Source: Polynucleobacter necessarius (GTDB lineage: Bacteria > Pseudomonadota > Gammaproteobacteria > Burkholderiales > Burkholderiaceae). From it: 32,000 nt of DNA. This document shows positions 5,115-32,000 of this stretch, in pieces (the first letter of the stretch is position 1; the number at the start of each line of letters is the position of its first letter). Both the position numbers and the translations under genes were made by a program. Below the pieces are notes generated by a model. That model worked only from the letters and a program-made list of their open reading frames with translations, had not been told where the DNA came from and did not search any database. Location of the stretch: NCBI RefSeq assembly GCF_900095195.1, contig NZ_LT606950.1:787207-819206 (forward strand). The letters run 5' to 3'.

Positions 5115-6454
5115 TTACGCCTGGCGATGAGAAAACTCTGACAATAAACCCTGCGCTTCAATGGTGATGTACGCTCGGGCTAAATTCAGTTTGACACGCA
5201 GAGTATCCGCTAAAGGATTGCTAGCTCCAGAGGTATCCACAGGCGCAGGCGCTACTGGATGCGCGCCAACTGGTGCTTGCTTTGCCGGTTTCGTTAAATC
5301 TAAATCAATGCCCGCAAACAATGCTTTTGCACGCTCCGGCATTTCAAATGCGGCACCTGAACTGGGAGCAGCAGTCTGTTCGCCATTCTGTAACTGAATT
5401 GCTCCGTCAAATGCTGGCCCTTCTGAACGTCTAGCATGACGTGCTAGACCCCAAAGCAGCAAACCCGTCAAGGCAATCAACCCAATTGCCAATATAACTG
5501 GTCCGAAGCCTCCAAATCCAAAGTTGTTATCAACTGCTTTTTTCTCCTTAGATTTTTCCAAGAGGCGTTGTAAATCAGCGATGTTCTTTTCTAGCTCAGC
5601 TACTCGTGCCTTAGCTTGCTCTAACTCTTTTTCTTGCGCCACTAAATTTTCGGTATAACGACGCTCTTGCTCATTGCCATCAGCACTAGAGCCAATCTTC
5701 AAGCGATCTTTCGCTGCTGACGCTGCTGAAGACGCGGATTTGCCTCCTCCGCTAGCGTCGCCTTTGCCATCCTTGGACTGTTCTGCCTGCCACCGCTCAT
5801 TTGCTTGCGCAACAAACTGGTAAGCTTCAGCCGGACTAATGGAACGCAAAAGTGCTTGACTCGGTTTATTGAGTTCTACGCCAGCAGCAAGGCGATTGAT
5901 ACTGCCACTAGCAAACGCATCAGGATTGGCTTTGTAGAGCCCATGATGGCTTGGATCCAATGTGGCGCCCTCCAATTGCGGCGCCATCAGCATTGCAATC
6001 TCAGAGAGTGTTTGACCGGGCTTCACAACAACTTTTTGCGCTCCCCCAATTAATAACGTGAAAGTTTTGGTAATACTGCCACTAGACCAATTGAGATTTA
6101 CTAATACGTCTAAAAAGGATCGTCCGTAATAGGTACTGAATTGACCGTTTCAACCAACACCATCAATTGCTCAGCACGGTTTCGATACACCATCGCCTGA
6201 GGATTGAGCTCGAGGACTTTTTGCGAGACGCCTAAACGCTCATACGATGCTTTTCCAGGCAAAGCAACCTTGAGCGACTCGAGCGCACCGCTCTCTTCCG
6301 CCGCAATACGAATCGGAATCTCAACGCGCAGGGGTTCGCCAGGACGTGACTGGAGTTGAGGCGCACCCAAGGTGACCGCCCAAGTTGTGCAAGCCCAACG
6401 GGGCAGAACAAAGCAAAACGCTTTGAGCAAGCGAAGTTGGGTCCTTAACAACAT
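5115..6454 (-). pseudogene. fimV: FimV-like peptidoglycan-binding protein, split by a 1-nt frameshift
   Basis: The N-terminal ORF 6454-6110 has a signal peptide and the FimV N-domain, and ends ...PITDDPF-stop. The conserved continuation LDVLVNLNWSSGSITKTFTLLIGG, then the LysM-like VVVKPGQTLSEIA, reads on without a stop in the adjacent frame into ORF 6026-5115. The junction is a T5 run on the coding strand (A5 on plus, about 6112-6116), where T6 would give PFLDV. It sits between asd and truA, as in other Burkholderiales. Confidence 0.75.
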
Positions 6455-6472
6455 TAGGGCATTAAAGGAGAA

Positions 6473-7630
6473 TTACTTCTCAAGCAAGATACGGAGCATG
6501 CGACGCAACGGTTCTGCAGCACCCCATAACAATTGATCACCTACCGTAAATGCGCCAAGATATTCAGGCCCCATCGCCAACTTATGCAAGCGCCCAATAG
6601 GTACAGTTAAGGTGCCGCTTATTGCAGCAGGCGATAGATCGCGCTCGGTAGTCTCACGATCGTTCGGAACCACTTTGACCCACCGATTATCGTTTGCCAA
6701 AATAGTTTCAATATCCTGAAGCGGAATGTCTTTCTTCAACTTGACCGTCAAACCTTGCGAGTGGCAACGCATGGCGCCAACACGAACGCATAAACCATCA
6801 ATCGGAATACTGCCTGGCGAACGGAATGCAGGTCGGCCTAGAATTTTGTTAAATTCAGCGCCGCTCTTCCACTCTTCCTTAGTTTGACCATTCTCAACAG
6901 GAACGTCGATCCATGGAATTAAGCTACCAGCCAGGGCGGTGTTGCGGAAATTCTTTTTCGGAAAGTCGGCTGAGCGCAGTGTCTCAGTGACCTTACGATC
7001 GATATCCAAGATCCATGAAGACGGATCAGCCAATTCTGTGGCAACGCTGTCACGCAATGCACCCATCTGCAAGAGCAACTCGCGCATGTTCTGCGCGCCA
7101 GCACCTGAGGCTGCCTGATAGGTCATGGCGCTAATCCACTCCACCATGTCAGCCTTCACCAAGCCGCCCATAGCCATCATCATTAAACTGACCGTGCAGT
7201 TCGCACCAATCCAGTTTTTGCCACCAGCTGCTAGAGCCTTATCGATGACAGCGCGATTAACGGGATCCAAAACCAGTACCGCATCATCCTTCATGCGCAA
7301 TGCGCTAGCAGCATCAATCCAGTGACCATTCCAACCCGCTGCACGCAGTTTCGGGAAGATTTCATTGGTATAGTCGCCGCCTTGGCAAGTCAAAATAATG
7401 TCGCAGCGTGACAATGCACTGATGTCATTCGCATCTTGCAATGTATTTTCACTCTTGGTGACTTTTTTACCATTGAGCAATGGCACTTCGCCACCCGCTT
7501 GGCTGGTGCTAAAGAAAACGGGTTCGATCAGTTCAAAATCCTTCTCAGCAAGCATGCGCTCCATTAGCACGCTTCCTACCATTCCGCGCCAGCCAACCAA
7601 TCCTACCAATGGTGTATTTGAATTTGCCAT
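6473..7630 (-). CDS. asd: aspartate-semialdehyde dehydrogenase
   Basis: 385-aa ORF with [13 protein letters not shown] (NAD-binding), [10 protein letters not shown] (active-site Cys) and a C-terminal [16 protein letters not shown]. Confidence 0.95.
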
Positions 7631-7686
7631 GATTTCACTATCTATAAAAAGTTGTATCGCTACTACTATTAATGATTATTTCAAGA

Positions 7687-8757
7687 CTAAGCTAAGGCCG
7701 CTACCACTGCATCACCCATTTGCACGGTGCTTACCTTTTGAGTGCCTTCCGTGTAAATATCCGCAGTGCGCAATCCCTGCGCCAATACTTTTTGCACCGC
7801 TTTATCAATACGATCTGCTTCAGTAGGCATACCCAAGGAATACCGCAACATCATGGCAGCGGACAAAGTTGTCGCCAACGGATTCGCAATACCCTTACCC
7901 GCAATATCTGGTGCAGAGCCATGACTCGGCTCATATAAGCCTTTATTGTTCTTATCCAAAGATGCAGAAGGCAACATTCCGATAGATCCAGTCAACATCG
8001 CCGCCTCATCCGACAGAATATCGCCAAAAAGATTGCTCGTTACCACCACATCGAAGGCCTTAGGCGCTTTAACCAGCTGCATGGCTGCGTTATCCACATA
8101 CATATGCGATAACTCGACATCTGGATAGTCCTTTGACACCCGAATCATCACTTTACGCCATAGTTGTGAGGTCTCGAGTACGTTTGCTTTATCCACGCTA
8201 CAAACTTTTTTGCCTCGCTTACGAGCAACCTCAAATGCAACACGACCGATACGCTCTACTTCAGGCTCGCTGTAATGCATGGTGTCAAACCCCTCGCGCG
8301 CACCCTTAAATAATTCCAACTCCGAAGTGCGAATGCCGCGCGGTTGTCCAAAATAAATATCGCCGTTGAGTTCGCGGACAATCAAAATATCCAAGCCACC
8401 AATAATTTCGGGTTTTAAACTCGAAGCAGCGGTAAGCTCTGGATAACAAATTGCTGGCCTGAAGTTGGCAAACAACGCTAAGTGTTTGCGCAATCCTAAA
8501 ATCGCTTGCTCTGGGCGGAGTTCACGCGCCAGAGTGTCGTATTTCCAATCGCCAACAGCACCAAATAAGATTGCATCGGCTTTTTTTGCCAATTCTAGGG
8601 TTGCTGGTGGCAAAGGGTGCCCTGCCACATCATAAGCAGCTCCGCCTACAGGCGCTTCCTCTAAATCAACCTGCGTTCCGAGCGCCTTGAGCACACGAAC
8701 GGCCTGAGCAACGATTTCCGGGCCTATCCCATCGCCCGGGAGAACCGCAATTTTCAT
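7687..8757 (-). CDS. leuB: 3-isopropylmalate dehydrogenase
   Basis: 356-aa ORF with [41 protein letters not shown]. Confidence 0.96.
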
Positions 8758-9485: not shown

Positions 9486-9665
9486 TTACCTTGTGTTTGC
9501 GATTGGTTTTGCTGTGTTGGTTTTGCTCCAGACCCACCCATTGAATCCCATGGTCTGCAAATCTTTTCCCATGCCCTCAAGTGTGCTGCTGCAGGCGGCA
9601 ATCAGAAGACCAGCGATACCAACAATGGCCAAACGAGCAATCAACGATATTGGAGAAAATTTCAT
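9486..9665 (-). CDS. small entericidin-like lipoprotein (59 aa)
   Basis: This is the internal Met of the 112-aa track ORF: MKFSPISLIARLAIVGIAGLLIAAC. It has a signal peptide with lipobox IAAC followed by an EGMGKDLQ motif resembling entericidin EcnA/B. AAGGA lies 5-9 nt upstream of the ATG. The longer ORF would overlap the 3' end of leuC. Confidence 0.6.
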   Translation of the reverse strand: MKFSPISLIARLAIVGIAGLLIAACSSTLEGMGKDLQTMGFNGWVWSKTNTAKPIANTR

Positions 9666-19770: not shown

Positions 19771-20546
19771 TACTTTTTCTCAGCTCGTCTAAAAACGGGT
19801 TTATCGGGTTTGGAGTCTGCGGCGTAATATTTGTATCCGTCCAGATTAAACCCTTTTAGGTCCGCTGGATCGGTAATCCGATTTTCAACAACGTATCTTG
19901 CCATGAGTCCACGGGCACGCTTGGCATAGAACGAAATAATTTTGTATTTGCCGTCCTTAGCATCCTGAAAGACTGGAGAAATTACAGGACAGACCAAATC
20001 TTTTGGTTGCAAAACCTTGAAATACTCTTCCGAGGCAAGGCTTAACAAAAATGGTTTCTTTTGCGCATCAAAGACTTTTTTGAGGGATTCGGTCACACGA
20101 CTACCCCAAAAAGCGTATAAATCTTTTCCTCGACTACTTTTCAACGAGGTGCCCATCTCCAGTCGGTAGGGTTGCATCAAATCAAGAGGTCGCAATGCAC
20201 CATAAAGACCTGACAAGATCCGCACGTGATTTTGCACAAATTCCACCGCTTTCGCACTTAAGCTCTTAACATCGAATCCATCATAGACATCGCCATCAAA
20301 GGCATAGATCGCGGGCTTACTATTTTCATCGGTAAATTTCTTAGACCAATCCCGATAACGTCCGATATTGAGTACTGCAAGCTGATCGGACAAACCCATC
20401 AACTTAGCAACATCTTGGGGCGCCAATTTCTTGAGGTCGGAGATCAACTTGGCGGACTCGGACACAAACTCGGGTAAGGTGGGCGCCTTAACCTTGACGG
20501 GGGTCTTGTAATCGAGGGATCTAGCAGGTGAAAGGACGATCAACAT
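19770..20546 (-). CDS. yaaA: peroxide stress protein YaaA (UPF0246/DUF328)
   Basis: 258-aa ORF with the MLIVLSPARSLDY N-terminus characteristic of YaaA. Confidence 0.88.
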   Translation of the reverse strand: MLIVLSPARSLDYKTPVKVKAPTLPEFVSESAKLISDLKKLAPQDVAKLMGLSDQLAVLNIGRYRDWSKKFTDENSKPAIYAFDGDVYDGFDVKSLSAKAVEFVQNHVRILSGLYGALRPLDLMQPYRLEMGTSLKSSRGKDLYAFWGSRVTESLKKVFDAQKKPFLLSLASEEYFKVLQPKDLVCPVISPVFQDAKDGKYKIISFYAKRARGLMARYVVENRITDPADLKGFNLDGYKYYAADSKPDKPVFRRAEKK

Positions 20547-20625
20547 GGCACAATTTGCTTATGGTTTTTTTAGGTCATTTCTACCATTCTAGCGACTACT
20601 GAATTTATCTGTCTAAACAGGATTT

Positions 20626-21297
20626 ATGACAACCTCTACCACCCCATCATTTCCGAGTCGACTGCACAGGTTGGTACAACAATTTTTACGGTGATGTCTG
20701 CGCTAGCCACCCAACATCAAGCCATTAATTTAGGACAAGGTTTTCTGGATTTTCCCTGCGATCGCCATTTGATTGCCAAAGTGAATGAAGCAATGCTGGC
20801 CGATCACAATCAATACCCCACATTGATTGGTATTCCCAGCCTACGCAATAGAATTGCTCAAAAGATTCAGAATTTGTACGGCCATCAATACGATGCCGAT
20901 TCCGAAATCACGATTACTGCAGGGGGACCCAAGGAATATTAACCGCAATCTTGGCATGCGTTAGTCCTGGTGACGAAGTTGTCATCATTGAACCGGCCTA
21001 TGACAGCTATAGACCGTCGATTGCGTTAGCGGGCGGCAAAGCAATTGCGGTTTCGCTAGAAACGATTCGCAATTCTAGTGGGCAAGTAAGCTCGTATGCC
21101 ATTCCCTGGGGTGCCCTCCAAAAAGCCATTAATCCGAAGACGCGCTTGATCATCATCAACACACCGCACAATCCCACTGGCATGGTTTGGCAAAAAGCCG
21201 ATCTTGATCGTTTGGCGAATTTAGTAAAAGAAACCAACGCTTTGATTTTGAGTGATGAGGTCTATGAGCACATGGTCTATGACGGTGAAATACAGCA
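20626..21297 (+). pseudogene. YbdL-like class-I/II (methionine) aminotransferase, N-terminal two thirds; two frameshifts, then truncation by an inversion breakpoint
   Basis: The ATG at 20626 gives MTTSTTPSFPSRL. Net -1 shifts near 20665 and near 20928 lead through (P)QVGTTIFTVMSALATQHQAINLGQGF and ITITAGG to QGILTAILACVSPGDEVVIIEPAYDSY...NTPHNPTG...LSDEVYEHMVYDGEIQH. The reading then runs into unrelated (inverted) sequence. Confidence 0.85.
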
Positions 21298-21766
21298 CCC
21301 CATAAAGACACTTAGCTTCGTTAGTGTACCGATTGATTGCGTACTCAATTTTCTCGGGGGCGTACAAGCGGAAGCGATGGTTTTGCCCAAACATGGGGTC
21401 TAAGCCACCCATCTGGAACATCAGCCACTGCAAGACCTCGTATTTACCTCGTGTAGATTTAGGTAAGAACTTGCCAGCTTTACTGGCAAGGTAGAGCAAA
21501 ATAGCGCCGGATTCAAAGATGCTAATGGGTTTGCCATCCGGACTGTTGGGATCAACGAGCGCGGGGATCTTATTGTTAGGACTGATCTTCAAAAAGGTCT
21601 TCTTGAACTGATCACCAGCACCAATATCTACCGGATGTGCAATCCAGTCTTTGCTCAAACGATAGTTGCATTCTTCAAGCATGATGTGAACCTTGTGGCC
21701 ATTGGGGGTGGGCAAACTGTAGACATCAATGAAATTTCCAGCAGCAGGGGATGATTTTATGGCCAT
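21298..21766 (-). pseudogene. Nu-class glutathione S-transferase (YfcG/YghU-like), N-terminal part (about 156 codons)
   Basis: Reads LPTPNGHKVHIMLEE...ISPNNKIPALVD...IFESGAILLYLA...AINRYTNEAKCLYGVL. The ORF then continues into antisense aminotransferase sequence (YFTVIDHV...), which is not GST-like. Confidence 0.85.
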
Positions 21767-21802
21767 AAGTTTCCCTGAATGGTTCTTTGTTGTTCTAATC
21801 TG

Positions 21803-22331
21803 TTAAGTGGGGATTGCCTGTAAACGCTTTAGCGCTTCTGCTAGCGTTTGTTCTTGTTTAGCAAAACAAAATCGTACAACGCCTGATTCCGTTGGCTCCT
21901 CGTAAAACGCGGAAACCGGAATCGCAGCGACACCGATATCGGTTGTCAGCCACCGACAAAAGTCCGCCTCGGATAATTTCGCCTGGGGAATATTCAAGCC
22001 AGAATAGTCCACGCATCGAAAATACGTTCCAGGCGTTGGCAATAGCGTAAAGGGCGTTCGCTCAAGACCGGCTCTAAAAAAATCCCGCTTCGCTTGATAG
22101 AAGGTCGGCAAGTTTTGGTAATGCGACGGATCTTCAAGATAGGATGCTAATCCAAACTGCATTGGCGTGTTCACAGTAAAGACATTGAATTGATGAACTT
22201 TCCGGAACTCTAACGTTAAAGCTGCCGGCGCTGCAACATAGCCCACCTTCCAGCCAGTGACATGATAGGTCTTGCCAAAATTTGATATTAGAAAACTCCG
22301 CGTCGCCAGCTCGGGATGCGATGCCACGCTA
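21803..22331 (-). pseudogene. YbdL-like aminotransferase, C-terminal third (inverted)
   Basis: Reads (QH)SVASHPELATRSFLISNFGKTYHVTGWKVGYVAAP, which carries the PLP-lysine motif, through to a normal C-terminus. It continues exactly where the plus-strand fragment stops. Confidence 0.85.
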
Positions 22332-22603
22332 TGCTGGACACGCAGTTGAAAAATAATCCATATATCTGTGGAAAAGAGTATTCGATTGCTGATATCGCTA
22401 TTTATCCATGGACCCGAAATTGGAAAAACCAGGGTATTGATATCGCGGATTTTCCCAACTTCAAACGCTGGTTTGAAAAGATCGGTAAACGCCCTGCTGT
22501 CGTTCGAGGGTGTGAAGTATTAACCGCATTACGTAAGCCCTTGCATGATGACAAGGCGAGAGAGCAGTTATTTGGAGCAACGCAGTATCAACGAAGGAAA
22601 TAG
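22332..22603 (+). pseudogene. Nu-class GST, C-terminal domain
   Basis: Reads LDTQLKNNPYICGKEYSIADIAIYPW...FPNFKRWFEKIGKRPAVVRG. It continues exactly where the minus-strand GST fragment stops. Confidence 0.85.
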
Positions 22604-22604
22604 G

Positions 22605-23041
22605 ATGAGCATTCAATCGGTTGGTGTAATCGGTGCAGGCACCATGGGTAATGGCATTGCACAGGTATGTGCAGTTGCTGGTTTAAATGTGGTGATGGTC
22701 GATATTAATGACGTAGCTGTGCAACGTGGTCTTGATCAAATCAGCAAAAGTTTGGATCGACTCGTCAAAAAAGAAACATTAACTACTGAAGCTAAAGATG
22801 CCGCGCTCAAGCGAGTCCTGAAGATATCGATGCCGGCATGAAGCTGGGCTGCAATCAACCGATTGGTCCTTTGGCATTAGCAGACTTAATTGGTTTAGAT
22901 GCCTGTTTAGCAGTGATGGAAGTCTATTTTGAAAACTTTAGCGATTCCAAATACCGCCCCTGCCCACTCCTACGTGAAATGGTTGCCGCCGGCTACTTAG
23001 GTCGCAAGACTGGACGTGGCGTCTACACTTACGATAAATAA
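22605..23041 (+). pseudogene. 3-hydroxybutyryl-CoA dehydrogenase with a large internal out-of-frame deletion
   Basis: The N-terminal 71 aa (MSIQSVGVIGAGTMGNGIAQ...AALKRV) are fused near 22817 to the C-terminal roughly 74 aa ([28 protein letters not shown]...[13 protein letters not shown]) in another frame. The central half of the enzyme is missing. Confidence 0.85.
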
Positions 23042-23058
23042 GGCTTGGATTCTTTAAC

Positions 23059-23564
23059 TTGAATAACATCATCGTGAACACCAGCAACAATCCCATTCCA
23101 CCGCTTGTTTTAAAACTTGGCTACGCAGGCCTCATTCCATTTATTGGCTTGGCGCTTTTAGTACGACTTGCGCCAACCCCGTTAAATTATCTAAACGCAG
23201 AATCATTGGCTGGGTATGGTGCAGTGATCACCTCGTTCATGGGTGCATTCATTGGGGCGCAAACCTTCACACCATCGGGAGGGCTCCAAGTGGCGATCGC
23301 TGGATTGACCGTAATGCTTGGATCTGGGGTGTCATTCCTGCTCTGGTTGCCTGGGTCGCGTTGCATATTTACATTCCTGTCGGACTATTGATCATGGCAT
23401 CGACATTGATCATTCAACGCAATATTGATCAAAACACCTATCAATACTATTTTGCAGATGATGTCACTCGCGCAGCGTTCATGGTCATGCGCAATCGCTT
23501 GACGTATATTGCTGCCGCCTGCCTCACTTGGGCAGTGATTGTCATTCTCTTTATTCAAGCTTGA
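23059..23564 (+). pseudogene. DUF3429-like membrane protein, one frameshift
   Basis: Reads LGYAGLIPF...YGAVITSFMG, then a net -1 shift near 23246. The continuation IHWGANL...WGVIPALVAWVAL joins track ORF 23361-23564. Confidence 0.7.
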
Positions 23565-23568
23565 GGGT

Positions 23569-24889
23569 ATGAGCGGTCTTTTTGACAGCACTCCACCGCC
23601 GCCACTGGCGGAAGCGCTGCGACCTAAAACTATTGATGATGTTATTGGGCAAACCCATCTTCTAGCGACTGGTAAGCCATTACAACTCGCCTTTGCGTCA
23701 GGCAAGCTCCATTCCATGATTCTCTGGGGCCCGCCGGGCGTTGGCAAAACAACCTTAGCACGCCTGTCGGCGAAAGCATTCGATCGAGAGTTCATTGCCA
23801 TCTCCGCAGTACTTGCTGGCGTTAAAGAAATACGTGAAGCAATTGAGCAAGCCCAGCAGAATATGGCGCAGTACGGAAAGCAAACCATTTTATTTGTCGA
23901 TGAAATTCATCGGTTTAATAAAAGCCAACAAGACGCACTGCTTCCGCATGTGGAGTCTGGCTTGTTTACCTTTATCGGCGCCACAACTGAAAACCACCTC
24001 CTTTGAAGTCAATTCAGCGTTACTGTCACGTGCCCAAGTCTACGTACTCAAGTCTTTAACTGCAGCTGAATTAAAAACCCTATTTGAGCGTGCGCATCAG
24101 TATGCAATGCCTGACGTGCAGTTTGATTCTGCTGCAATCGATACATTGATTAGCCATGCCGATGGCGATGCTCGTCGTCTATTAAACCTGGTTGAACAAG
24201 TCCGCAATGCCATTCAGACACCGAATTCCTCTGTAAACAGCGTAGATCAAACTTTTATTGACAATGCCCTTACGGTACAAGCAAGGCGCTTTGATAAAGG
24301 CGGCGATCAATTTTACGATCAAATCTCCGCATTGCATAAATCCGTTAGGGGCTCAAATCCAGATGCAGCACTCTATTGGTTTTGTCGCATGTTCGATGGT
24401 GGAGCTGATCCACGATATCTTACCCGCCGCATTATTCGCATGGCCTGGGAGGATATTGGTTTGGCGGATCCGCGCGCAATGCAATTGGCAAACGATGCTG
24501 CTTTAACGTATGAACGACTAGGCTCACCGGAGGGAAAGTTGGCCTTGGGACAAGCAGTGGTGTATTTGGCAGTCGCATCTAAAAGTAATGCAAGCTACAA
24601 AGCGTTTAATGCCGCGCGCGCTTTTGTCGCAAATGATCAATCGAAACCTGTACCCGAACACCTGCGCAATGCCCCTACCAAACTCATGAAAGAACTTGGT
24701 CACGGCAAAGAGTATCGTTACGCTCACGATGAACCCCATGGCTACGCTGCCGGTGAATCGTATTTACCCGATGGAATGACTCAGCCTCATTGGTACGAGC
24801 CGGTTGAACGTGGGTTAGAGAGCCAGATTAAAGAAAAAATGGCCTTCTTACGCCAATTGGATACCGAATACAAAACTAAATCGGACTAA
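23569..24889 (+). pseudogene. rarA: replication-associated recombination protein A (AAA+ ATPase RarA/MgsA), frameshifted
   Basis: Reads MSGLFDS...[13 protein letters not shown] (Walker A), [12 protein letters not shown] (Walker B) and GATTEN. There is a net +1 shift at about 23994-23998, and (P)[18 protein letters not shown] continues in the ORF that ends at 24889. Confidence 0.88.
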
Positions 24890-24893
24890 TCTC

Positions 24894-25522
24894 ATGACGA
24901 CCAAGATTCCTGCGACGTTTTACTCCGATATCGTCTCGCCATTTGCTTATTTATATATCAAGCAACGTCAACGGCTGGAATCAACACTTGAGATTACCCC
25001 TGTGCCGGCCCTTTTGGGTGGCTTATTGAGAACTTCAGACAATAAGGGTCCCGGTGAGATTGCTGCGAAGCGTCCGCACACCTATCAATTTTGTGTATGG
25101 CAAGCAGAAAAATTGGGAATTCCATTTCGCTTTCCAGAACACCATCCATTTATGACAGTGGCTGCTCAACGCTTACTTGTTGAACATCATGCAAACTGGA
25201 ACATGGTTGAACGTGCATTTGATTATGTGTGGGTTGAAGGTAAAGACCCTAATCTATCGTAGCCTGATTTTTGCGCATATGTGGGATTGCCGGCAGATAC
25301 AGCGAAACCCGATACTCCCGAGGTCAAAGCAAAACTCATCAACAACACCAATCAAGCAAAGGTTGCAGGGGCGTTCGGCGTCCCTGCCCTAGTCGTCAAT
25401 GGTCACTGCTTCTGGGGAGTAGATACGATCGATTGGACGTAGGTTACCTAGCCCGACCAACCATGTTCGATGAGGCGCCTTATGCCTTCGCAGCCAATGT
25501 CCCCAATGGCTTAGCGCCCTAG
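24894..25522 (+). pseudogene. 2-hydroxychromene-2-carboxylate isomerase / DsbA-like thioredoxin-fold protein, with a nonsense codon and a frameshift
   Basis: After FYSDIVSPFAYLY...PALLGGLL there is an in-frame TAG at 25260-25262. The same frame continues PDFCAYVGL...GAFGVPALVVNGHCFWGVDTIDW. A net -1 shift near 25438 then leads into VGYLARPTMFDE... Confidence 0.8.
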
Positions 25523-25605
25523 ACTAAATCGCGCCGAACACCGCATTGGGCAATACAATACAAAAAGAACAATAACGCTTTTTATACAAATTCTTAGGAG
25601 ATTTC

Positions 25606-26181
25606 ATGCGCAAGCTTTTCGCCAGCCTTTTTCTCATAACCGCTTTCTTTGCTAGCCAAGCGGCAGTCGCAGGCCCTAAGGTGGAATTTAAAACCACGAT
25701 GGGTAATTTTGTCGTGGAGCTCGACGATGTAAAGGCCCCAAAGACCACTGCTAATTTTTTAAATTATGTCAAAAGTGGTTTTTATAACGGTACGATTTTT
25801 CATCGTGTGATTGATGGCTTCATGATTCAGGGTGGTGGATTTACTCCTGACCTCGTACAAAAACCCACTGATGTGCCCGTAGCATCAGAGGCAAATAATG
25901 ATCTTAAAAACAATACGTACACCATTGCCATGGCCCGTACATCTGATCCCGATTCTGCAACCTCACAGTTTTTTATCAATGTGAAAGATAACGAGGGACT
26001 GAACTACCCTAATGCAATGGGCAATGGTTACACCGTCTTTGGCAAAGTGATTTCGGGCACGCAAACCATTGATGCCATCCGTAAAGTGCCAACAATGGTT
26101 GCTCCCGCTGCACGCATGGGCAGAATGGCTGATGTACCCACCAAGACTGTTGTCATTGAATCAGCAACAATCCTCAAGTAA
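25606..26181 (+). CDS. ppiA: periplasmic peptidyl-prolyl cis-trans isomerase (cyclophilin type)
   Basis: 191-aa ORF with a signal peptide ending AAVA-GP and cyclophilin motifs FHRVIDGFMIQGGGF and SQFFIN. An AGGAG ribosome-binding site lies upstream. Confidence 0.93.
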   Translation: MRKLFASLFLITAFFASQAAVAGPKVEFKTTMGNFVVELDDVKAPKTTANFLNYVKSGFYNGTIFHRVIDGFMIQGGGFTPDLVQKPTDVPVASEANNDLKNNTYTIAMARTSDPDSATSQFFINVKDNEGLNYPNAMGNGYTVFGKVISGTQTIDAIRKVPTMVAPAARMGRMADVPTKTVVIESATILK

Positions 26182-26206
26182 CAAAATACTGTAGTGTCTG
26201 GTCGCC

Positions 26207-28027
26207 ATGATTTTGCTCGATGATGCGCAAAGTACGGCGGCCAATTGTTGCAATCGATCGAAGTGGCTCTAGTTCAATACTGGCAGGTGATGCCTTCGGA
26301 TAATGATGCAACTGATCGTGAAGCCATCGAAGTCTGCTTGCAGGCAATCACTCAATCTCTTCAGAATGGTCAATATATTGTTGCCGCTTTTGCGTATGAA
26401 GTTGGGAAAACCATTCACAAGCTTCCTCGCAAAATACCGACAGGAAACAGTCCCCACTCATCGAAGCATGGGCTTTTGATGGCTTTCAAAAACTCGCTAA
26501 AGAAGATGTAGACCAATATATTCTGAATGCGTTAAACGCACTTGATAAAACCCAAACCATCGCGGGCGTCGTGGATGTACGGGAGTCCATCAGTGAAACG
26601 CAATTTTGTGACGATATCGCGCAGATTCAGGAATACATCCGCGCAGGCGACACCTATCAAATTAACCATACCTATAGGATCACTGGGGAAACCTATGGCG
26701 ATCCTTTAGCGCTTTACAAACGGCTACGAGAGCGGCAACCAGGACGGTTTGGCGCATACATCGCCCACCAGTCTCGATACCTCTTATCGCAACTGCCCGA
26801 ACTCTTCATTGAGTGCAAAGGCGACATTCTCAAAGCGATGCCCATGAAAGGGACTGCCAGCGCCCTCTCCGAGAATAAGAGTGCGCTATCGGATGATCCA
26901 AAAAATCAGGCAGAAAATGTCATAATTGTGGATTTATTGCGCAATGATCTCAGTCGCATATCACTTCCAAATACAGTTTCCGTACCTAATTTATTTGCCA
27001 TGGCACGGTATGGCGATGTCTTACAAATGACATCAACTGTACAGGGACAGGCAAAGCCTAATATCGCGTTGGGCGATGTTTTGCATGCCGTCTTTCCATG
27101 TGGGTCTGTCACGGGCACGCCGAAGAAACGCAGCATGGAAATTATTCAAGAGCTTGAACCAGAGAATCGAGGCTATTACTGTGGCGCTTTGGGATGGCTT
27201 GACCCTGGGGGCGATTTTGCTTTTAGCGTCCCAATTCGTACGGTGGAGATTGAACGAGACAATCTATCCCGCAAAAATACCTTCAGTCTGGGTGTTGGCG
27301 CCGGTATTACGATCGACTCCGATCCCAAAGAGGAGTGGCATGAATGTGAAATCAAATCCGCCTTTTTAACGAAACTCATTAGTGCCACCGGATTATTTGA
27401 GACGATTGCTATCAATCAGAATGTGCCTCAACGATTACAGCAACACTTGGATCGTCTGGAGTCCTCTGCCACTGCTCTACGAATCGCTTTTGATCGAAAA
27501 CATGCAAGCACTCTAATTGTGAATGCCTGTTCTGAGCTCAATTCCGCCCTGAACTTTCGACTACGACTCGATCTTCTAGCAGATGGAGCAATGAATATCA
27601 CCACGGGGCTACTTGACCTATTGAGCAATCCGTCAAACTATTTTGGGCAAGCGACATTCTTCCTAGCAACTGCACAATGTATTCGGGAGACCCCTTATTA
27701 CGACATAAAGTGAGTCAGCGCGCCCTATGCGATGCCGCATGGCAAGCGGCGGTCAAGCTCGGAAGCTTTGATGCACTATTTGTGAACGAGCAAGGTTACG
27801 TTACGGAAGGTGACAGAACTAGCATTTTTATTAAATCCAAAGGGAATGCTGAATGGCTTACTCCACCGGTCTCAGCCGGATTACTGCCCGGGGTAATGCG
27901 TGCCGCACTTCTAGCAGACCCGCAATAGAATGCCCGTGCGGCCAACCTGACTATTCAGGATATTTCCATGGCAGATGAGATTATTCTATGCAATGCCTTG
28001 CGAGGCGCCATTAAAGCCCATTTCTAG
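26207..28027 (+). pseudogene. pabB: fused aminodeoxychorismate synthase component I / aminodeoxychorismate lyase (PabB-PabC), with 3 frameshifts and 1 nonsense codon
   Basis: The gene starts MILLDDAQSTAAN. Net -1 shifts occur near 26243, in the CCCC run at 26452-26455, and somewhere in 27617-27704. The PabB core is recognisable (AMPMKGTA, DPKNQAENVIIVDLLRND, CGSVTGTPK, RGYYCGALGW, GAGITIDS). A class-IV aminotransferase-like tail follows (RHKVSQR...EGDRTSIF...GLLPGVMR). An in-frame TAG lies at 27926-27928, and the frame continues to the stop at 28025-28027. Confidence 0.8.
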
Positions 28028-28036
28028 AAAGAAATC

Positions 28037-28590
28037 ATGAAGTATTGCTCACACTGCGCTGCTACTTTAATCATCAAGAGACCGGCGGACGATTCACGTG
28101 AGCGTTTTGTTTGTGAAAACTGTGGCAGCATTCATTATCAAAATCCCCGCAATGTCGTCGGTAGCATTCCAATTTATGGCGATCAAGTATTGTTGTGTCG
28201 TCGCGCCATCGAACCACGTTATGGCTATTGGACATTACCAGCGGACTTTATGGAATTAGGTGAAAGTACGAGTCATGGCGCCGCTAGAGAAACACTCGAA
28301 AAAGCGGGTGCAGTGGTTGAAGTGGGACCACTCTATTCCCTACTGAATATGCCCCATGCCGAGCAAACGCATTTGTTTTATCTAGCCAAGATGCACGCCC
28401 CAGAATTCTTTGCTGGCGAAGAAAGTCTTGAAGTTGCACTTTTCATGAGCAGGAGATTCCCTGGAAGGAATTGGCCTTTCCGACCGCCAAACAAACGCTG
28501 GAATGGTTTTTTGCAGATCGCGCAGCTGGCGTTCTGAATGGAGAATTTTATGTCCGCAGTCGCGATGTCTTACCCTCTGAACGCATTTGA
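28037..28590 (+). pseudogene. Nudix hydrolase with N-terminal zinc ribbon; C-terminal frameshift and a degenerate Nudix box
   Basis: Contains CSHC...CENCG. The Nudix box reads DFMELGESTSHGAARETLEKAG against the consensus Gx5Ex7REUxEExGU. A net -1 shift near 28443 leads into the plausible tail HEQEIPWKELAFPTAKQTLEWFFADR..., which ends at the TGA at 28588-28590. Confidence 0.78.
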
Positions 28591-28599
28591 TAGCTTCTC

Positions 28600-29337
28600 A
28601 TGAGTCAAATTGCTTGGTTAGGACCAAACGATTCCTTTCCCAATCCTCTGCAAAAACCCGACCCCGATCCTAACGTCCCTGGATTGATAGCTGTCAGCGA
28701 ACGAATTTATCCCGGTCAATTGTTGCAAGCGTACCAACGCGGTATTTTTCCATGGTACTCCGATAATCAGCCTGTTTTATGGTGGTCCCCAGACCCCCGA
28801 ATGGTTTTGCAACCCCAACACTTTAAATGCAGTGAGTCATTACAAAAAGTCATACGGCAGTTTTGCCAAGACTCGCAAAGTCAATTGCTAGTCGACACAG
28901 ACTTTGGTGCCGTGATTCGCGCGTGCGCAACCAGCATTCGCAAAGATCAAGACGGCACTTGGATCACCCACGAAATTATCGATGCGTACACCACCTTTCA
29001 TGAACAAGGCCATGCCCATTGCATCGCCCTTCAAGAACAAGGTGAACTGATTGGCGGTTTATATTGCGTTGCCTTAGGGGGTATGGTCTTTGGTGAATCA
29101 ATGTTTAGCCGTAAACCCAACGCCTCTAAAATAGCTTTAGCAGCCTTGAGCGCATGGTGCATTGAGCATGGGATGGCGATGATTGACTGCCAGCAGGAAA
29201 CAGCTCACCTGCGCTCTCTAGGCGCTGTGCCCATTTCTAGAGCTCAGTTTTTAGATCAACTGCAAATCTCGCTAAATCAATCTAATATTGAGTTACCTTG
29301 GACTTTTGATAAGCAGATCCTGACTCACTGGCTATGA
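28600..29337 (+). CDS. aat: leucyl/phenylalanyl-tRNA--protein transferase
   Basis: 245-aa ORF with [26 protein letters not shown] and FGESMFS. Confidence 0.93.
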
Positions 29338-30056
29338 CTCGGCTCAAAGAACCTCCCTTAACCGCCATACAGTTTTACGCAACTGCACCCTACCCATGCA
29401 GTTCTCAAGTAGCCACACCATCGCACCTCATTCATGCTGATGTCTATAACGAGTTACTGAATGCGGGTTTTCGTCGGAGAGGTCTGTATACCTATCGCCC
29501 GTATTGCGATCACTGCAAAGTGTGTATCGCTACTCGGATTTTGGTTGACCAATTTCATCCAACCCGCAGTCAACGTCGCGCCTGGAAAAAACACAGTGGT
29601 CTCGAGGCATTTGTTCTGAATCTCGGATACCAAGAAGAGCACCACCAACTCTATCAACGCTATCAAACACAACGGCATGCTGGTGGCGATATGGACAACG
29701 ATGACCAAGATCAGTACATGCAATTTTTATTGCGAAGCCGGGTGAACTCCCGCATTGTTGAGTTTCGGGATGGGGCCCACGATCCGCATCCAGGACGGCT
29801 ACGCATGGTCAGCATGATTGACATTCTGGAGCAAGGCATCTCCTCGGTATATACCTTCTATGACAGCTTGGATTCCACCGCAAGCTTTGGTAACTACAGC
29901 ATTCTGTGGCAAATCGAGCAAGCGCGGGCTCTCAAACTTTCGTATTTCTATTTGGGCTACTACATTAAAGAGAGTGAAAAAATGTCGTACAAGGTGAATT
30001 TTCAGCCCATGGAAGGATTGCTTGACGATCATTGGCAACCATTGACTGGTTCATAA
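29334..30056 (+). CDS. bpt: arginyl-tRNA--protein transferase family (bacterial Bpt, aspartate/glutamate leucyltransferase); possible in-frame deletion
   Basis: 240-aa ORF with [42 protein letters not shown] and LGYYI. A 4-nt ATGA overlap couples it to aat. The segment after PCS looks about 8 residues short (see findings). Confidence 0.8.
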
Positions 30057-30065
30057 TAGCTATCC

Positions 30066-31136
30066 ATGATCGATCGCTATTCCCTCTTACGCCCCTGGCT
30101 CTTTTGCTTAGATCCCGAACAAGCGCATAACCTGACGCTCACGAACTTAGATCGAGCACGGCGCTGGGGATTTCTCAACAAGTTGGTTAGCAAACCGATT
30201 TCGGATCCGCAAACTCTGTGCGGCATCACCTTCCCCAATCCTGTTGGACTGGCAGCGGGCCTTGATAAAGATGGTAAGCATATTGATGCGCTGGCTGCGC
30301 TGGGTTTTGGTTTTCTAGAAATTGGCACCGTCACACCACGCCCTCAGCCAGGTAACGCAAAGCCTCGTATGTTTCGCCTGCCGCAAGCCCAAGCAATCAT
30401 TAACCGTATGGGCTTTAATAATGATGGTGTAAAGGCCTGTGTAGCCCGCGTTCGTCGGTCAGGATTTTGGCAAAACGGTGGTGTTCTTGGTTTAAATATC
30501 GGCAAAAACGCGACCACACCGATTGATGATGCAGCCAGTGATTACGTCATGGCCATGGATGCGGTCTATGACATCGCTACCTACATCACGGTTAACATCT
30601 CCTCCCCCAATACACAAAATCTCCGGGTCCTTCAAGGTGAAGATATGCTCCGTGATTTACTGCGTCAATTAGGTGATGCGCGAAATCGTTTAAGCGATCG
30701 CTTTGGAACGCGTAAGCCACTCTTTTTAAAGATTGCTCCCGACTTAGGTCAAGACGATGTTCATTTGATTGCCGATCTCCTGCTGGAGTTTGGTATTGAT
30801 GCCGTGATTGCTACAAACACCACGATCGCACGCGATGCTGTTCAAGGCATGGAATATGGCGAGGAAACAGGCGGACTCTCTGGTGCGCCCGTTCGCGCTG
30901 CATCCAATAAAGCCATTAGGGCTTTAAAAGCAAGACTAAAAGATCAACTTCCCATTATTGGTGTGGGCGGCATCATGAGTAGCGCTGACACTAGAGAAAA
31001 GATCATGGCGGGTGCAAGCCTAGTTCAACTCTATAGTGGACTGATTTATCGCGGCCCAGATCTTGTTAATGAGTGTGCCAAGGCGCTTAGACAGCCCATC
31101 CCAACGAAGAACCCTGAGCTCACTCGCCCTTGGTGA
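30066..31136 (+). CDS. pyrD: dihydroorotate dehydrogenase (quinone), class 2
   Basis: 356-aa ORF with [36 protein letters not shown] and GVGGI. Confidence 0.95.
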
Positions 31137-31234
31137 CGCCTGAGGGTTGCCCTAATTCCAAGCATATTGTCGGCGGTTCTATAAATGACGTTTCATAATA
31201 TGCAATACATCCTGAAATCGCTACAATATCGCCT

Positions 31235-32000
31235 ATGAGCACGGCCAAAACAGTCAAAACCACCAAAAATACTGGGGAAGTCGCCAAGACTGCCATCCAG
31301 GTGGTCGACCGTATGATGAATTTGCTCGATACCCTTGCCATACACGAAGAGTCGAGCAGCCTCAAGGCACTCGCTGAAGAAACGGGTCTCCACCCTTCTA
31401 CGGCTCACCGCATCCTCAATGGAATATGGTCCCTGCCGACTGGTTGAGCGTGGCGATGGTGGCCCTATAGACTGGGTTTAAAACTATTGGAGTTAGGCAA
31501 TCTTGTGAGAAAGCCCGCTTATCGGTTCGTGAAGCCGCTCAAGGTCCAATGCGCACCCTGCACAAGTTAACCGGTGAGACGGTTAATCTCTCAGTACGCC
31601 AAGGCGATGAAATTGTGTACATCGATCGCGCCTATAGCGAGCGTTCAGGCATGCAAGTGGTCCGCGCTATTGGAGGTCGCGCACCATTACATCTAACTTC
31701 CGTTGGAAAACTATTTCTGGCAAGCGACGATGCAAATCAGGTTCGCGCCCATGTGACTCGCACTGGCCTTTCTGGCCATACACGCAACAGCATTACCGAT
31801 TTAGCCAAACTCGAATCTGAACTGAAATCTGAACTGAATCATGTACGCAGAGTGGGGTAGCGCGCGAGACGATGAAGAGCTGGAGCTTGGCGTGAGTTGC
31901 TTGGCTGCATCCATCTTGGATGACACCGGCAAATTGGTAGCCGGCTTATCGCTTAGCGCCCCTACTGACCGTATTCAGGCAGATTGGTTGCGCTCCTTGC
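31235..32000 (+). pseudogene. IclR-family transcriptional regulator with at least 4 frame changes (continues past the window end)
   Basis: Recognisable pieces sit in different frames. They are ...SLKALAEETGLHPSTAHRILN, then LVERGDGGP, then YRLGLKLLELGNLV, then RLSVREAAQGPMRTLHKLTGETVNLSVRQGDEIVYIDR...GRAPLHLTSVGK...HVRRVG-stop, then ARDDEELELGVSCLAASILDDTGKLVAGLSLSAP. Confidence 0.8.
31816..31839 (+). repeat. 12-bp in-frame tandem duplication (TCTGAACTGAAA / TCTGAACTGAAT) inside the IclR pseudogene
   Basis: The two units are adjacent and 11/12 identical, encoding SELK-SELN. Confidence 0.6.

Follow-up and report, generated by a model that had tools for sequence, protein, structure and literature searches.

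The window analyzed here comprises 32,000 nt of Polynucleobacter necessarius DNA (NZ_LT606950.1, positions 787,207–819,206 of the forward strand). The region under study, positions 20626–32000, carries 13 consecutive genes, nine of which are disrupted. We established this by tblastn and blastn comparison with L002, a syntenic reference locus from a metagenome-assembled genome of a free-living-type Polynucleobacter that gave the best match for this region, and by a coverage matrix of stop-to-stop open reading frames (ORFs) over 80 loci. L002 encodes 13 tightly packed genes in the equivalent region. Around 60 other Polynucleobacter loci cover the block, and in essentially all of these free-living loci the same 13 genes are single full-length ORFs lying in the same order. 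Lesions were catalogued from a nucleotide alignment with L002 and then refined against closer relatives, while the genes of the block were named after their Pfam matches. The features of the region, including exactly the nine genes that an initial annotation had named as broken, are the following:

20626–21290, + strand: aminotransferase (PF00155, class I/II) pseudogene, 5′ part (~codons 1–221); −1 at 20664 and −1 at 20923
21294–22336, no strand assigned: inverted segment of 1043 bp, matching L002 1831–805 and, reversed, L163 317–1365 in blastn
22337–22603, + strand: GST pseudogene, 3′ part in its original orientation; inversion breakpoint near 22334
22605–23041, + strand: hbd (3-hydroxyacyl/butyryl-CoA dehydrogenase) remnant; net 418-nt out-of-frame deletion at 22813
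23074–23564, + strand: DUF3429 pseudogene; −1 at 23249
23569–24889, + strand: rarA/mgsA (replication-associated recombination protein A) pseudogene; +1 at 23996
24894–25522, + strand: pseudogene of a DsbA-like gene of the HCCA-isomerase family (PF01323); TGG>TAG at 25260 and −1 at 25439
25606–26181, + strand: ppiA (cyclophilin PPIase), intact by tblastn, ORF matrix and Pfam
26207–28027, + strand: pabB-pabC fusion (pabBC; PF00425 + PF01063) pseudogene; deletions at 26257, 26452 and ~27620, TGG>TAG at 27926
28037–28590, + strand: Nudix hydrolase pseudogene; −1 in a T-run at 28440
28600–29337, + strand: aat (Leu/Phe-tRNA-protein transferase), intact; product 100% identical to WP_114662529.1
29334–30056, + strand: ate (arginyl/aspartyl-tRNA-protein transferase), open ORF; 24-nt in-frame deletion at 29400
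30066–31136, + strand: pyrD (dihydroorotate dehydrogenase), intact by ORF matrix and tblastn
31244–32000, + strand: iclR-family regulator pseudogene, ending at the window edge; at least four frameshifts within 31415–31854 and a 12-nt tandem duplication at 31808

All the kinds of lesion that the initial annotation had listed (frameshifts, nonsense codons, one deletion of ~0.4 kb and one inversion) were found. At least 15 frameshifting small indels, a minority of them at homopolymer sites, stand beside the two TGG>TAG mutations, the net 418-nt deletion and the 1043-bp inversion; further lesions are the 12-nt duplication in iclR and the 24-nt deletion in the otherwise open ate. Fragments of the broken genes together keep nearly the full length of their intact orthologues, with 66–97% amino-acid identity to them. 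Four genes of the block (ppiA, aat, pyrD and, as an open ORF, ate) are intact.

From position 20491 to 31996, the window is colinear with L002 in blastn except in two places, the inverted block and the missing stretch of hbd. Against seven intact relatives, the longest unmatched piece of the window measures 12 nt; therefore, the 32 kb contain no mobile element, as had been claimed for insertion sequences (IS) and transposases. GC content is flat across the window at ~0.47, and Rfam and tRNA scans of the 32 kb returned no family and no tRNA.

Several of the lesions deserve a closer description. The left breakpoint of the inversion, near 21290, severs the 5′ part of the aminotransferase gene, and the inverted segment carries on its minus strand the 3′ part of this gene (22336 to ~21812) followed by the 5′ part of the GST gene (~21871 to 21294). 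The breakpoints carry an inverted microhomology of 5 nt (CAGCA/TGCTG). Blastn revealed no inverted duplications at the inversion ends, the overlapping tblastn matches being spurious extensions. In hbd, ~430 bp of the ancestral gene are gone at 22798–22813, and L002 2294–2723 has no counterpart in the window. In pabBC, one nucleotide is missing at 26257 and another at ~27620, and the deletion at 26452 amounts to 1 nt relative to close relatives and 4 nt relative to L002. Positions 26240–26262, beside the frameshift at 26257, are dense in substitutions: the window reads TCGAAGTGGCTCT where both the sibling strain L169 and the relative L172 (see below) have CTTTACGAGGCTCC. Such a cluster looks like one multi-nucleotide mutational event and not like a series of independent point changes. 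The deletion in ate removes eight codons near the N-terminus.

Lesions Shared with and Private to Sibling Strains

Protein database cluster representatives included no relative with more than 89% amino-acid identity, and in the nearest relatives, at 87–89%, the genes are intact. Much closer sequences were retrieved from public assemblies by searching for exact matches to the conserved SdhB and by looking up members of the Aat cluster. They comprise a set of siblings that are 97.5–99% identical to the window: L164 and L169 (ENA ERZ27248707), L167 and L170 (Logan SRR32119647) and L171 (Logan SRR8208349). A further contig, L172 (Logan SRR22045393_454924), is equivalent to window positions 25809–29602 and shares 93.3% nucleotide identity with the window, which makes it much closer than the named free-living Polynucleobacter (76–84%). 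A literature search on the run accessions of the sibling strains found no mention of them.

The lesions common to the window and siblings are the hbd deletion junction (found in L167), the TAG codon of the DsbA-like gene (L167 and L169), the TAG codon of pabBC, the −1 in the Nudix gene (in an identical sequence context in L169), the 24-nt deletion in ate, the +1 at 31854 in iclR (L169), and a 2-nt deletion in a small ORF upstream of the block, which is described below. None of them occurs in L172 wherever L172 covers the site. All three genes covered by its contig are intact, namely, pabBC (607 aa, without the TAG), the Nudix gene (184 aa) and aat, and its ate sequence has no 24-nt deletion. 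Since the shared lesions are present in independent assemblies and absent from L172, they are real and, judging by this distribution, date back to the ancestor shared by the eroded clade. L172 itself may be a free-living sister lineage of this symbiont.

Other lesions are private to the window: 20664 (the base is present in L167), 23249, 25439, 26257, 26452, 31463, 31507, 31808, and the 1-kb inversion, whose ancestral right junction L167 retains. The siblings have private lesions as well. Frameshifts of their own lie in hbd, DUF3429 (a 1-nt deletion at 23107 instead of the one at 23249), rarA and the DsbA-like gene. Their deletions remove 833 bp of fimV in the upstream block, ~1.2 kb of the aminotransferase/GST pair, 581 bp of rarA (across 23921–24501), 128 and 194 bp of ppiA, and 193 bp of pabBC. 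Moreover, trpA, trpB, yaaA, ppiA and ate, all open in the window, carry frameshifts or deletions in siblings, at window-equivalent positions 1967 and 2510 in L164, 20108 in L167, and 25601–26186 and 29559–29923 in L169. Overall, the siblings are more eroded than the window strain, with extra deletions of 0.1–1.2 kb inside the shared pseudogenes. As the siblings and L172 are available in public metagenome and Sequence Read Archive assemblies, individual lesions can be ordered in time.

One more genome labelled P. necessarius, that of PPGSP2 (L070, LT606947.1, 1.89 Mb), shows disruptions within the 13-gene block in DUF3429 and pabBC alone, and its lesions (3386 and 6091–7914 of that locus) lie at other positions than those of the window. 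Such a pattern is in line with an independent, parallel erosion and suggests that the same genes were lost in parallel.

Selection on Broken and Intact Genes

Pooled Nei–Gojobori counts between the window and siblings separate the two groups of genes. For intact genes, the proportions of synonymous (pS) and nonsynonymous (pN) differences were 0.0167 and 0.0051 (pN/pS 0.30), while for broken genes, they were 0.0186 and 0.0170 (pN/pS 0.91); the difference in pN/pS is significant (Fisher p = 1.8e-4). Substitution divergence from siblings is twice as high in broken as in intact genes (1.66% vs. 0.87%), and small indels are five times as frequent (3.44 vs. 0.68 per kb). Thus, the broken genes evolve neutrally between the window and siblings, which bears out the relaxed selection that the initial annotation had proposed. 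That pS is the same within the block as beyond it argues against a local hot spot for point mutations. The gene ate belongs to neither group clearly: it is frameshifted in siblings, and its pN/pS between the window and a sibling is ~0.95, on few sites, so that it may be an incipient or cryptic tenth pseudogene. The ppiA gene, broken by deletions in siblings, has a ratio of nonsynonymous to synonymous substitution rates (dN/dS, or omega) of 0.15 between the window and L172.

The decay is also recent, as had been proposed. Against L002 and the other free-living references, dS is saturated (1.2 to >2.8), so dN/dS is uninformative there. Relative to these distant references, dN is not raised in the broken genes, the ratio of window-to-reference to L002-to-reference dN being ~1.0; therefore, the neutral phase must be short relative to that divergence. 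A nearer yardstick is provided by L172, from which the window is separated by a dS of ~0.2, with an omega of 0.17 for pabBC; across the comparisons with intact relatives, omega ranges from 0.01 to 0.17. If a functional omega of ~0.10 is adopted, the excess dN of pabBC corresponds to ~0.02 neutral substitutions per site. Inactivation would then have taken place just before the window–sibling split, in agreement with the shared TAG codon. The decay is recent also because L172, at 93% identity, still has intact pabBC and Nudix genes.

A different picture emerges in the upstream part of the window (1–20.5 kb), which was compared with metagenome loci around leuC and whose genes were named after NCBIfam and Pfam matches on relatives. 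Among its 24 reference ORFs, 22 are full length, including accD, trpA, trpB, trpF, truA, asd, leuB, leuD, leuC and gltA, as well as sdhE, sdhB, sdhA, sdhD, sdhC, a GntR regulator, mdh, a 124-aa ORF, DUF2863 and yaaA. The two broken ones are:

5115–6457, − strand: fimV/hubP-like pseudogene with a frameshift near 6114, the sole large broken gene of the upstream block; positions 5384–6216 (833 bp) are additionally lost in sibling L164
9461–9698, − strand: small conserved ORF between leuC and leuD (59–81 aa in relatives, without a Pfam match) with a 2-nt deletion near 9547, which sibling L164 also has

The initial annotation was thus right about fimV, though not in taking it for the only broken gene of this part (1 of 23). 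The clustering it described stands as well, with 9 of 13 genes broken at 20.6–32 kb against 2 of 24 at 1–20.5 kb (Fisher p = 2.4e-4). A minor correction concerns the notion of a pseudogene field. Under an assumed genome-wide pseudogene fraction of 0.18–0.35, a run of at least nine broken genes in 13 has a probability of 7e-5 to 1e-2 per position, and because essential genes cluster in operons, no special regional explanation is needed. Once this clustering is allowed for, the block is not an exceptional cluster: it is a run of dispensable genes beside a run of indispensable ones.

Origin of the Pseudogenes and of the Small Inversions

The assignment of the window to Polynucleobacter, which the initial annotation had only surmised, is firm. 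When species-representative genomes were scanned with the window PyrD, all of the best 80 loci belonged to Polynucleobacter, and the protein identical to the window Aat, WP_114662529.1, is annotated as P. necessarius and encoded on one contig of 1,550,368 bp (1.55 Mb). We consider it about 90% probable that the window belongs to the chromosome of the obligately endosymbiotic P. necessarius sensu lato, living in Euplotes, from a lineage other than that of STIR1, in which unneeded genes decay neutrally without mobile elements. Host restriction would have ended selection on unrelated accessory genes (those for the aminotransferase, GST, Hbd, DUF3429, RarA, the DsbA-like protein, PabBC, the Nudix hydrolase and the IclR regulator). 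Spontaneous mutations would then have piled up in them at the neutral rate, in keeping with the pN/pS of 0.91: indels of 1–4 nt, nonsense mutations, the 0.4-kb deletion, and the 1-kb inversion between inverted microhomologies of 5 nt. On the adjacent genes for the tricarboxylic acid cycle, leucine, tryptophan, Asd and AccD, together with ppiA, aat and pyrD, a weakened purifying selection would have persisted, as the pN/pS of 0.30 indicates, and mobile elements were not involved. The decay is young, having set in shortly before the window–sibling split, ~0.02 neutral substitutions per site ago, and it is continuing, the siblings having since lost parts of the same pseudogenes and broken yaaA, ppiA, ate, trpA and trpB.

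Some points weigh against this scenario. Host association cannot be seen in 32 kb of sequence, and we infer host restriction from the species label of an identical protein and from the literature. At ~1% divergence, a pN/pS of 0.30 partly reflects unpurged polymorphism and not simply relaxed selection. The private indels at 20664, 23249, 25439, 26257, 26452, 31463 and 31507 are known from the window assembly alone. Finally, the pseudogene fraction was measured locally (11 of 37 genes broken, with orthologues essentially all intact in the ~60 free-living loci), and the genome-wide value used here is an assumption.

It is important to weigh what else could produce such a region. We regard it as extremely improbable that errors of sequencing or assembly have produced the lesions and that the genome is in truth intact and of free-living type, as the two frameshifts in short homopolymers (the G-run at 20923 and the T-run at 28440) and the approximately nine small indels private to the window might suggest. 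At least seven lesions, including the one in the T-run at 28440, both nonsense mutations and the 418-nt deletion, recur in assemblies from three other data sets, and most frameshifts lie outside homopolymers. Furthermore, the 22 core genes plus ppiA, aat and pyrD (~23 kb) contain no frameshift, against ~2 per kb in broken genes, and indel errors cannot yield the doubled substitution divergence and the pN/pS near 1. Sequencing error is therefore excluded for the shared lesions, and it is implausible for the private ones because none occur in the ~23 kb of intact coding sequence. Just as improbable is the idea that the split genes still function, through separately translated fragments, programmed frameshifting or read-through. 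It could draw on the nearly full length of the fragments and their identity to intact orthologues, but it conflicts with the neutral pN/pS across the broken genes and with the multiple independent lesions found in several of them. In addition, hbd has lost half its length, the inversion has severed the aminotransferase and GST genes, the siblings delete pieces of 0.1–1.2 kb from the same genes, and lesion sites differ among siblings (e.g., 23249 vs. 23107 in DUF3429). Relatives with the split architecture thus evolve neutrally and go on deleting.

A regional cause (a hot spot of mutation, the loss of one regulon, or an island that was silenced or acquired horizontally) in a genome that is otherwise intact has somewhat more in its favor, as the lesions are strongly clustered and inversions and deletions recur in the same 11 kb in siblings. 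Even so, we hold it to be very unlikely. The region is syntenic and intact in ~60 Polynucleobacter species and has a flat GC content, and hence it is no island; nor are the nine broken genes functionally related. Four intact genes with low dN/dS are interspersed among them, which rules out a catastrophic mutation rate at this locus, and pS is alike in broken and intact genes. Genes outside the block are broken too (fimV and the small ORF in the window; trpA, trpB and yaaA in siblings), and the genome has 1.55 Mb compared with ~2.0–2.3 Mb in free-living strains (PMC5018217). Neutral decay in an obligate symbiont therefore remains our preferred interpretation. In such a picture of the earliest stage, point indels, nonsense mutations, small deletions and inversions kill dispensable genes, while essential operons nearby are kept.

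We would also like to comment on the small inversions. Five in-place inversions of 97 bp to 1 kb were observed in 11 kb of pseudogene DNA, between strains no more than ~3% diverged and without any IS. Besides the 1043-bp inversion of the window (21294–22336), they include one of 97 bp in L167 (window-equivalent 21399–21495) and, in L169/L170/L171, two overlapping ones in pabBC (26539–27036) and one of 184 bp in the Nudix gene (28016–28199). Overlaps of 4–7 nt (microhomology) were found at seven of the nine inversion junctions examined. Microhomology-flanked micro-inversions appear to be unusually frequent in dead genes, as counted in this 11 kb alone. One might tentatively speculate, although we think it rather doubtful, that in-place inversions of 0.1–1 kb at inverted microhomologies of 4–7 nt form a recurrent, IS-independent class of lesion in eroding Polynucleobacter symbionts. 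If so, they would point to template-switching during replication, possibly set off when genes for fork maintenance or repair were lost, of which the rarA/mgsA pseudogene of the same block would be one, and public read sets would hold a strain-resolution “time-lapse” of genome erosion.

Comparison with Known Systems

In Mycobacterium leprae, a large share of recognizable pseudogenes lies among intact essential genes, and these pseudogenes are old and heavily diverged. The window resembles this case in that pseudogenes are interspersed with intact essential genes. It differs in that the neutral phase spans only ~2% divergence and the siblings do not yet have the same set of broken genes.

Early-stage insect symbionts come closer in age. 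Sodalis glossinidius and the Sitophilus oryzae primary endosymbiont (SOPE) are such early-stage symbionts with massive pseudogenization, and Serratia symbiotica likewise has hundreds of near-full-length pseudogenes (PMC3056288). With these symbionts, the window shares recent host restriction (as far as our reading holds), near-full-length pseudogenes, neutral evolution of dead genes and ongoing deletion. Early symbiont genomes in general show a proliferation of IS and other mobile elements together with IS-mediated rearrangements (PMC4760077). Unlike this IS-driven type, represented by Sodalis and Serratia symbiotica, the window has no insertion in 32 kb, and its inversion breakpoints show only a 5-nt microhomology.

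The closest match is found in STIR1 and other Polynucleobacter symbionts of Euplotes. The P. necessarius genome contains a large number of pseudogenes (PMC5018217), and PMC5632650, citing Boscaro 2013, gives ~18% pseudogenization without mobile elements. According to PMC11253213 and PMC9539572, which cite Boscaro 2017, the symbionts have been repeatedly recruited from free-living strains and undergo drift-driven erosion. The likeness extends to the genus and subcluster (PnecC), the genome size (1.55 Mb within the published 1.5–1.9 Mb of symbiotic Polynucleobacter; PMC9539572), the many near-full-length pseudogenes without mobile elements, the kept synteny and unchanged GC content, and an elevated dN/dS that has been put down to drift.

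Assignment of the window to the STIR1 lineage itself was considered and rejected. The closest free-living relative of STIR1 is P. yangtzensis JaK3, with a published average nucleotide identity of 84% (PMC5018217). Its locus (L014) shares only ~73% identity with the window, and other loci match better; the closest intact relative found for the window is L172 at 93%.

Overall, the pattern seen here, pseudogenization without mobile elements, is the one already published for Euplotes symbionts, and it confirms that model without extending it. Within this framework, the window offers a clean and well-controlled illustration of the earliest phase of endosymbiont genome reduction.

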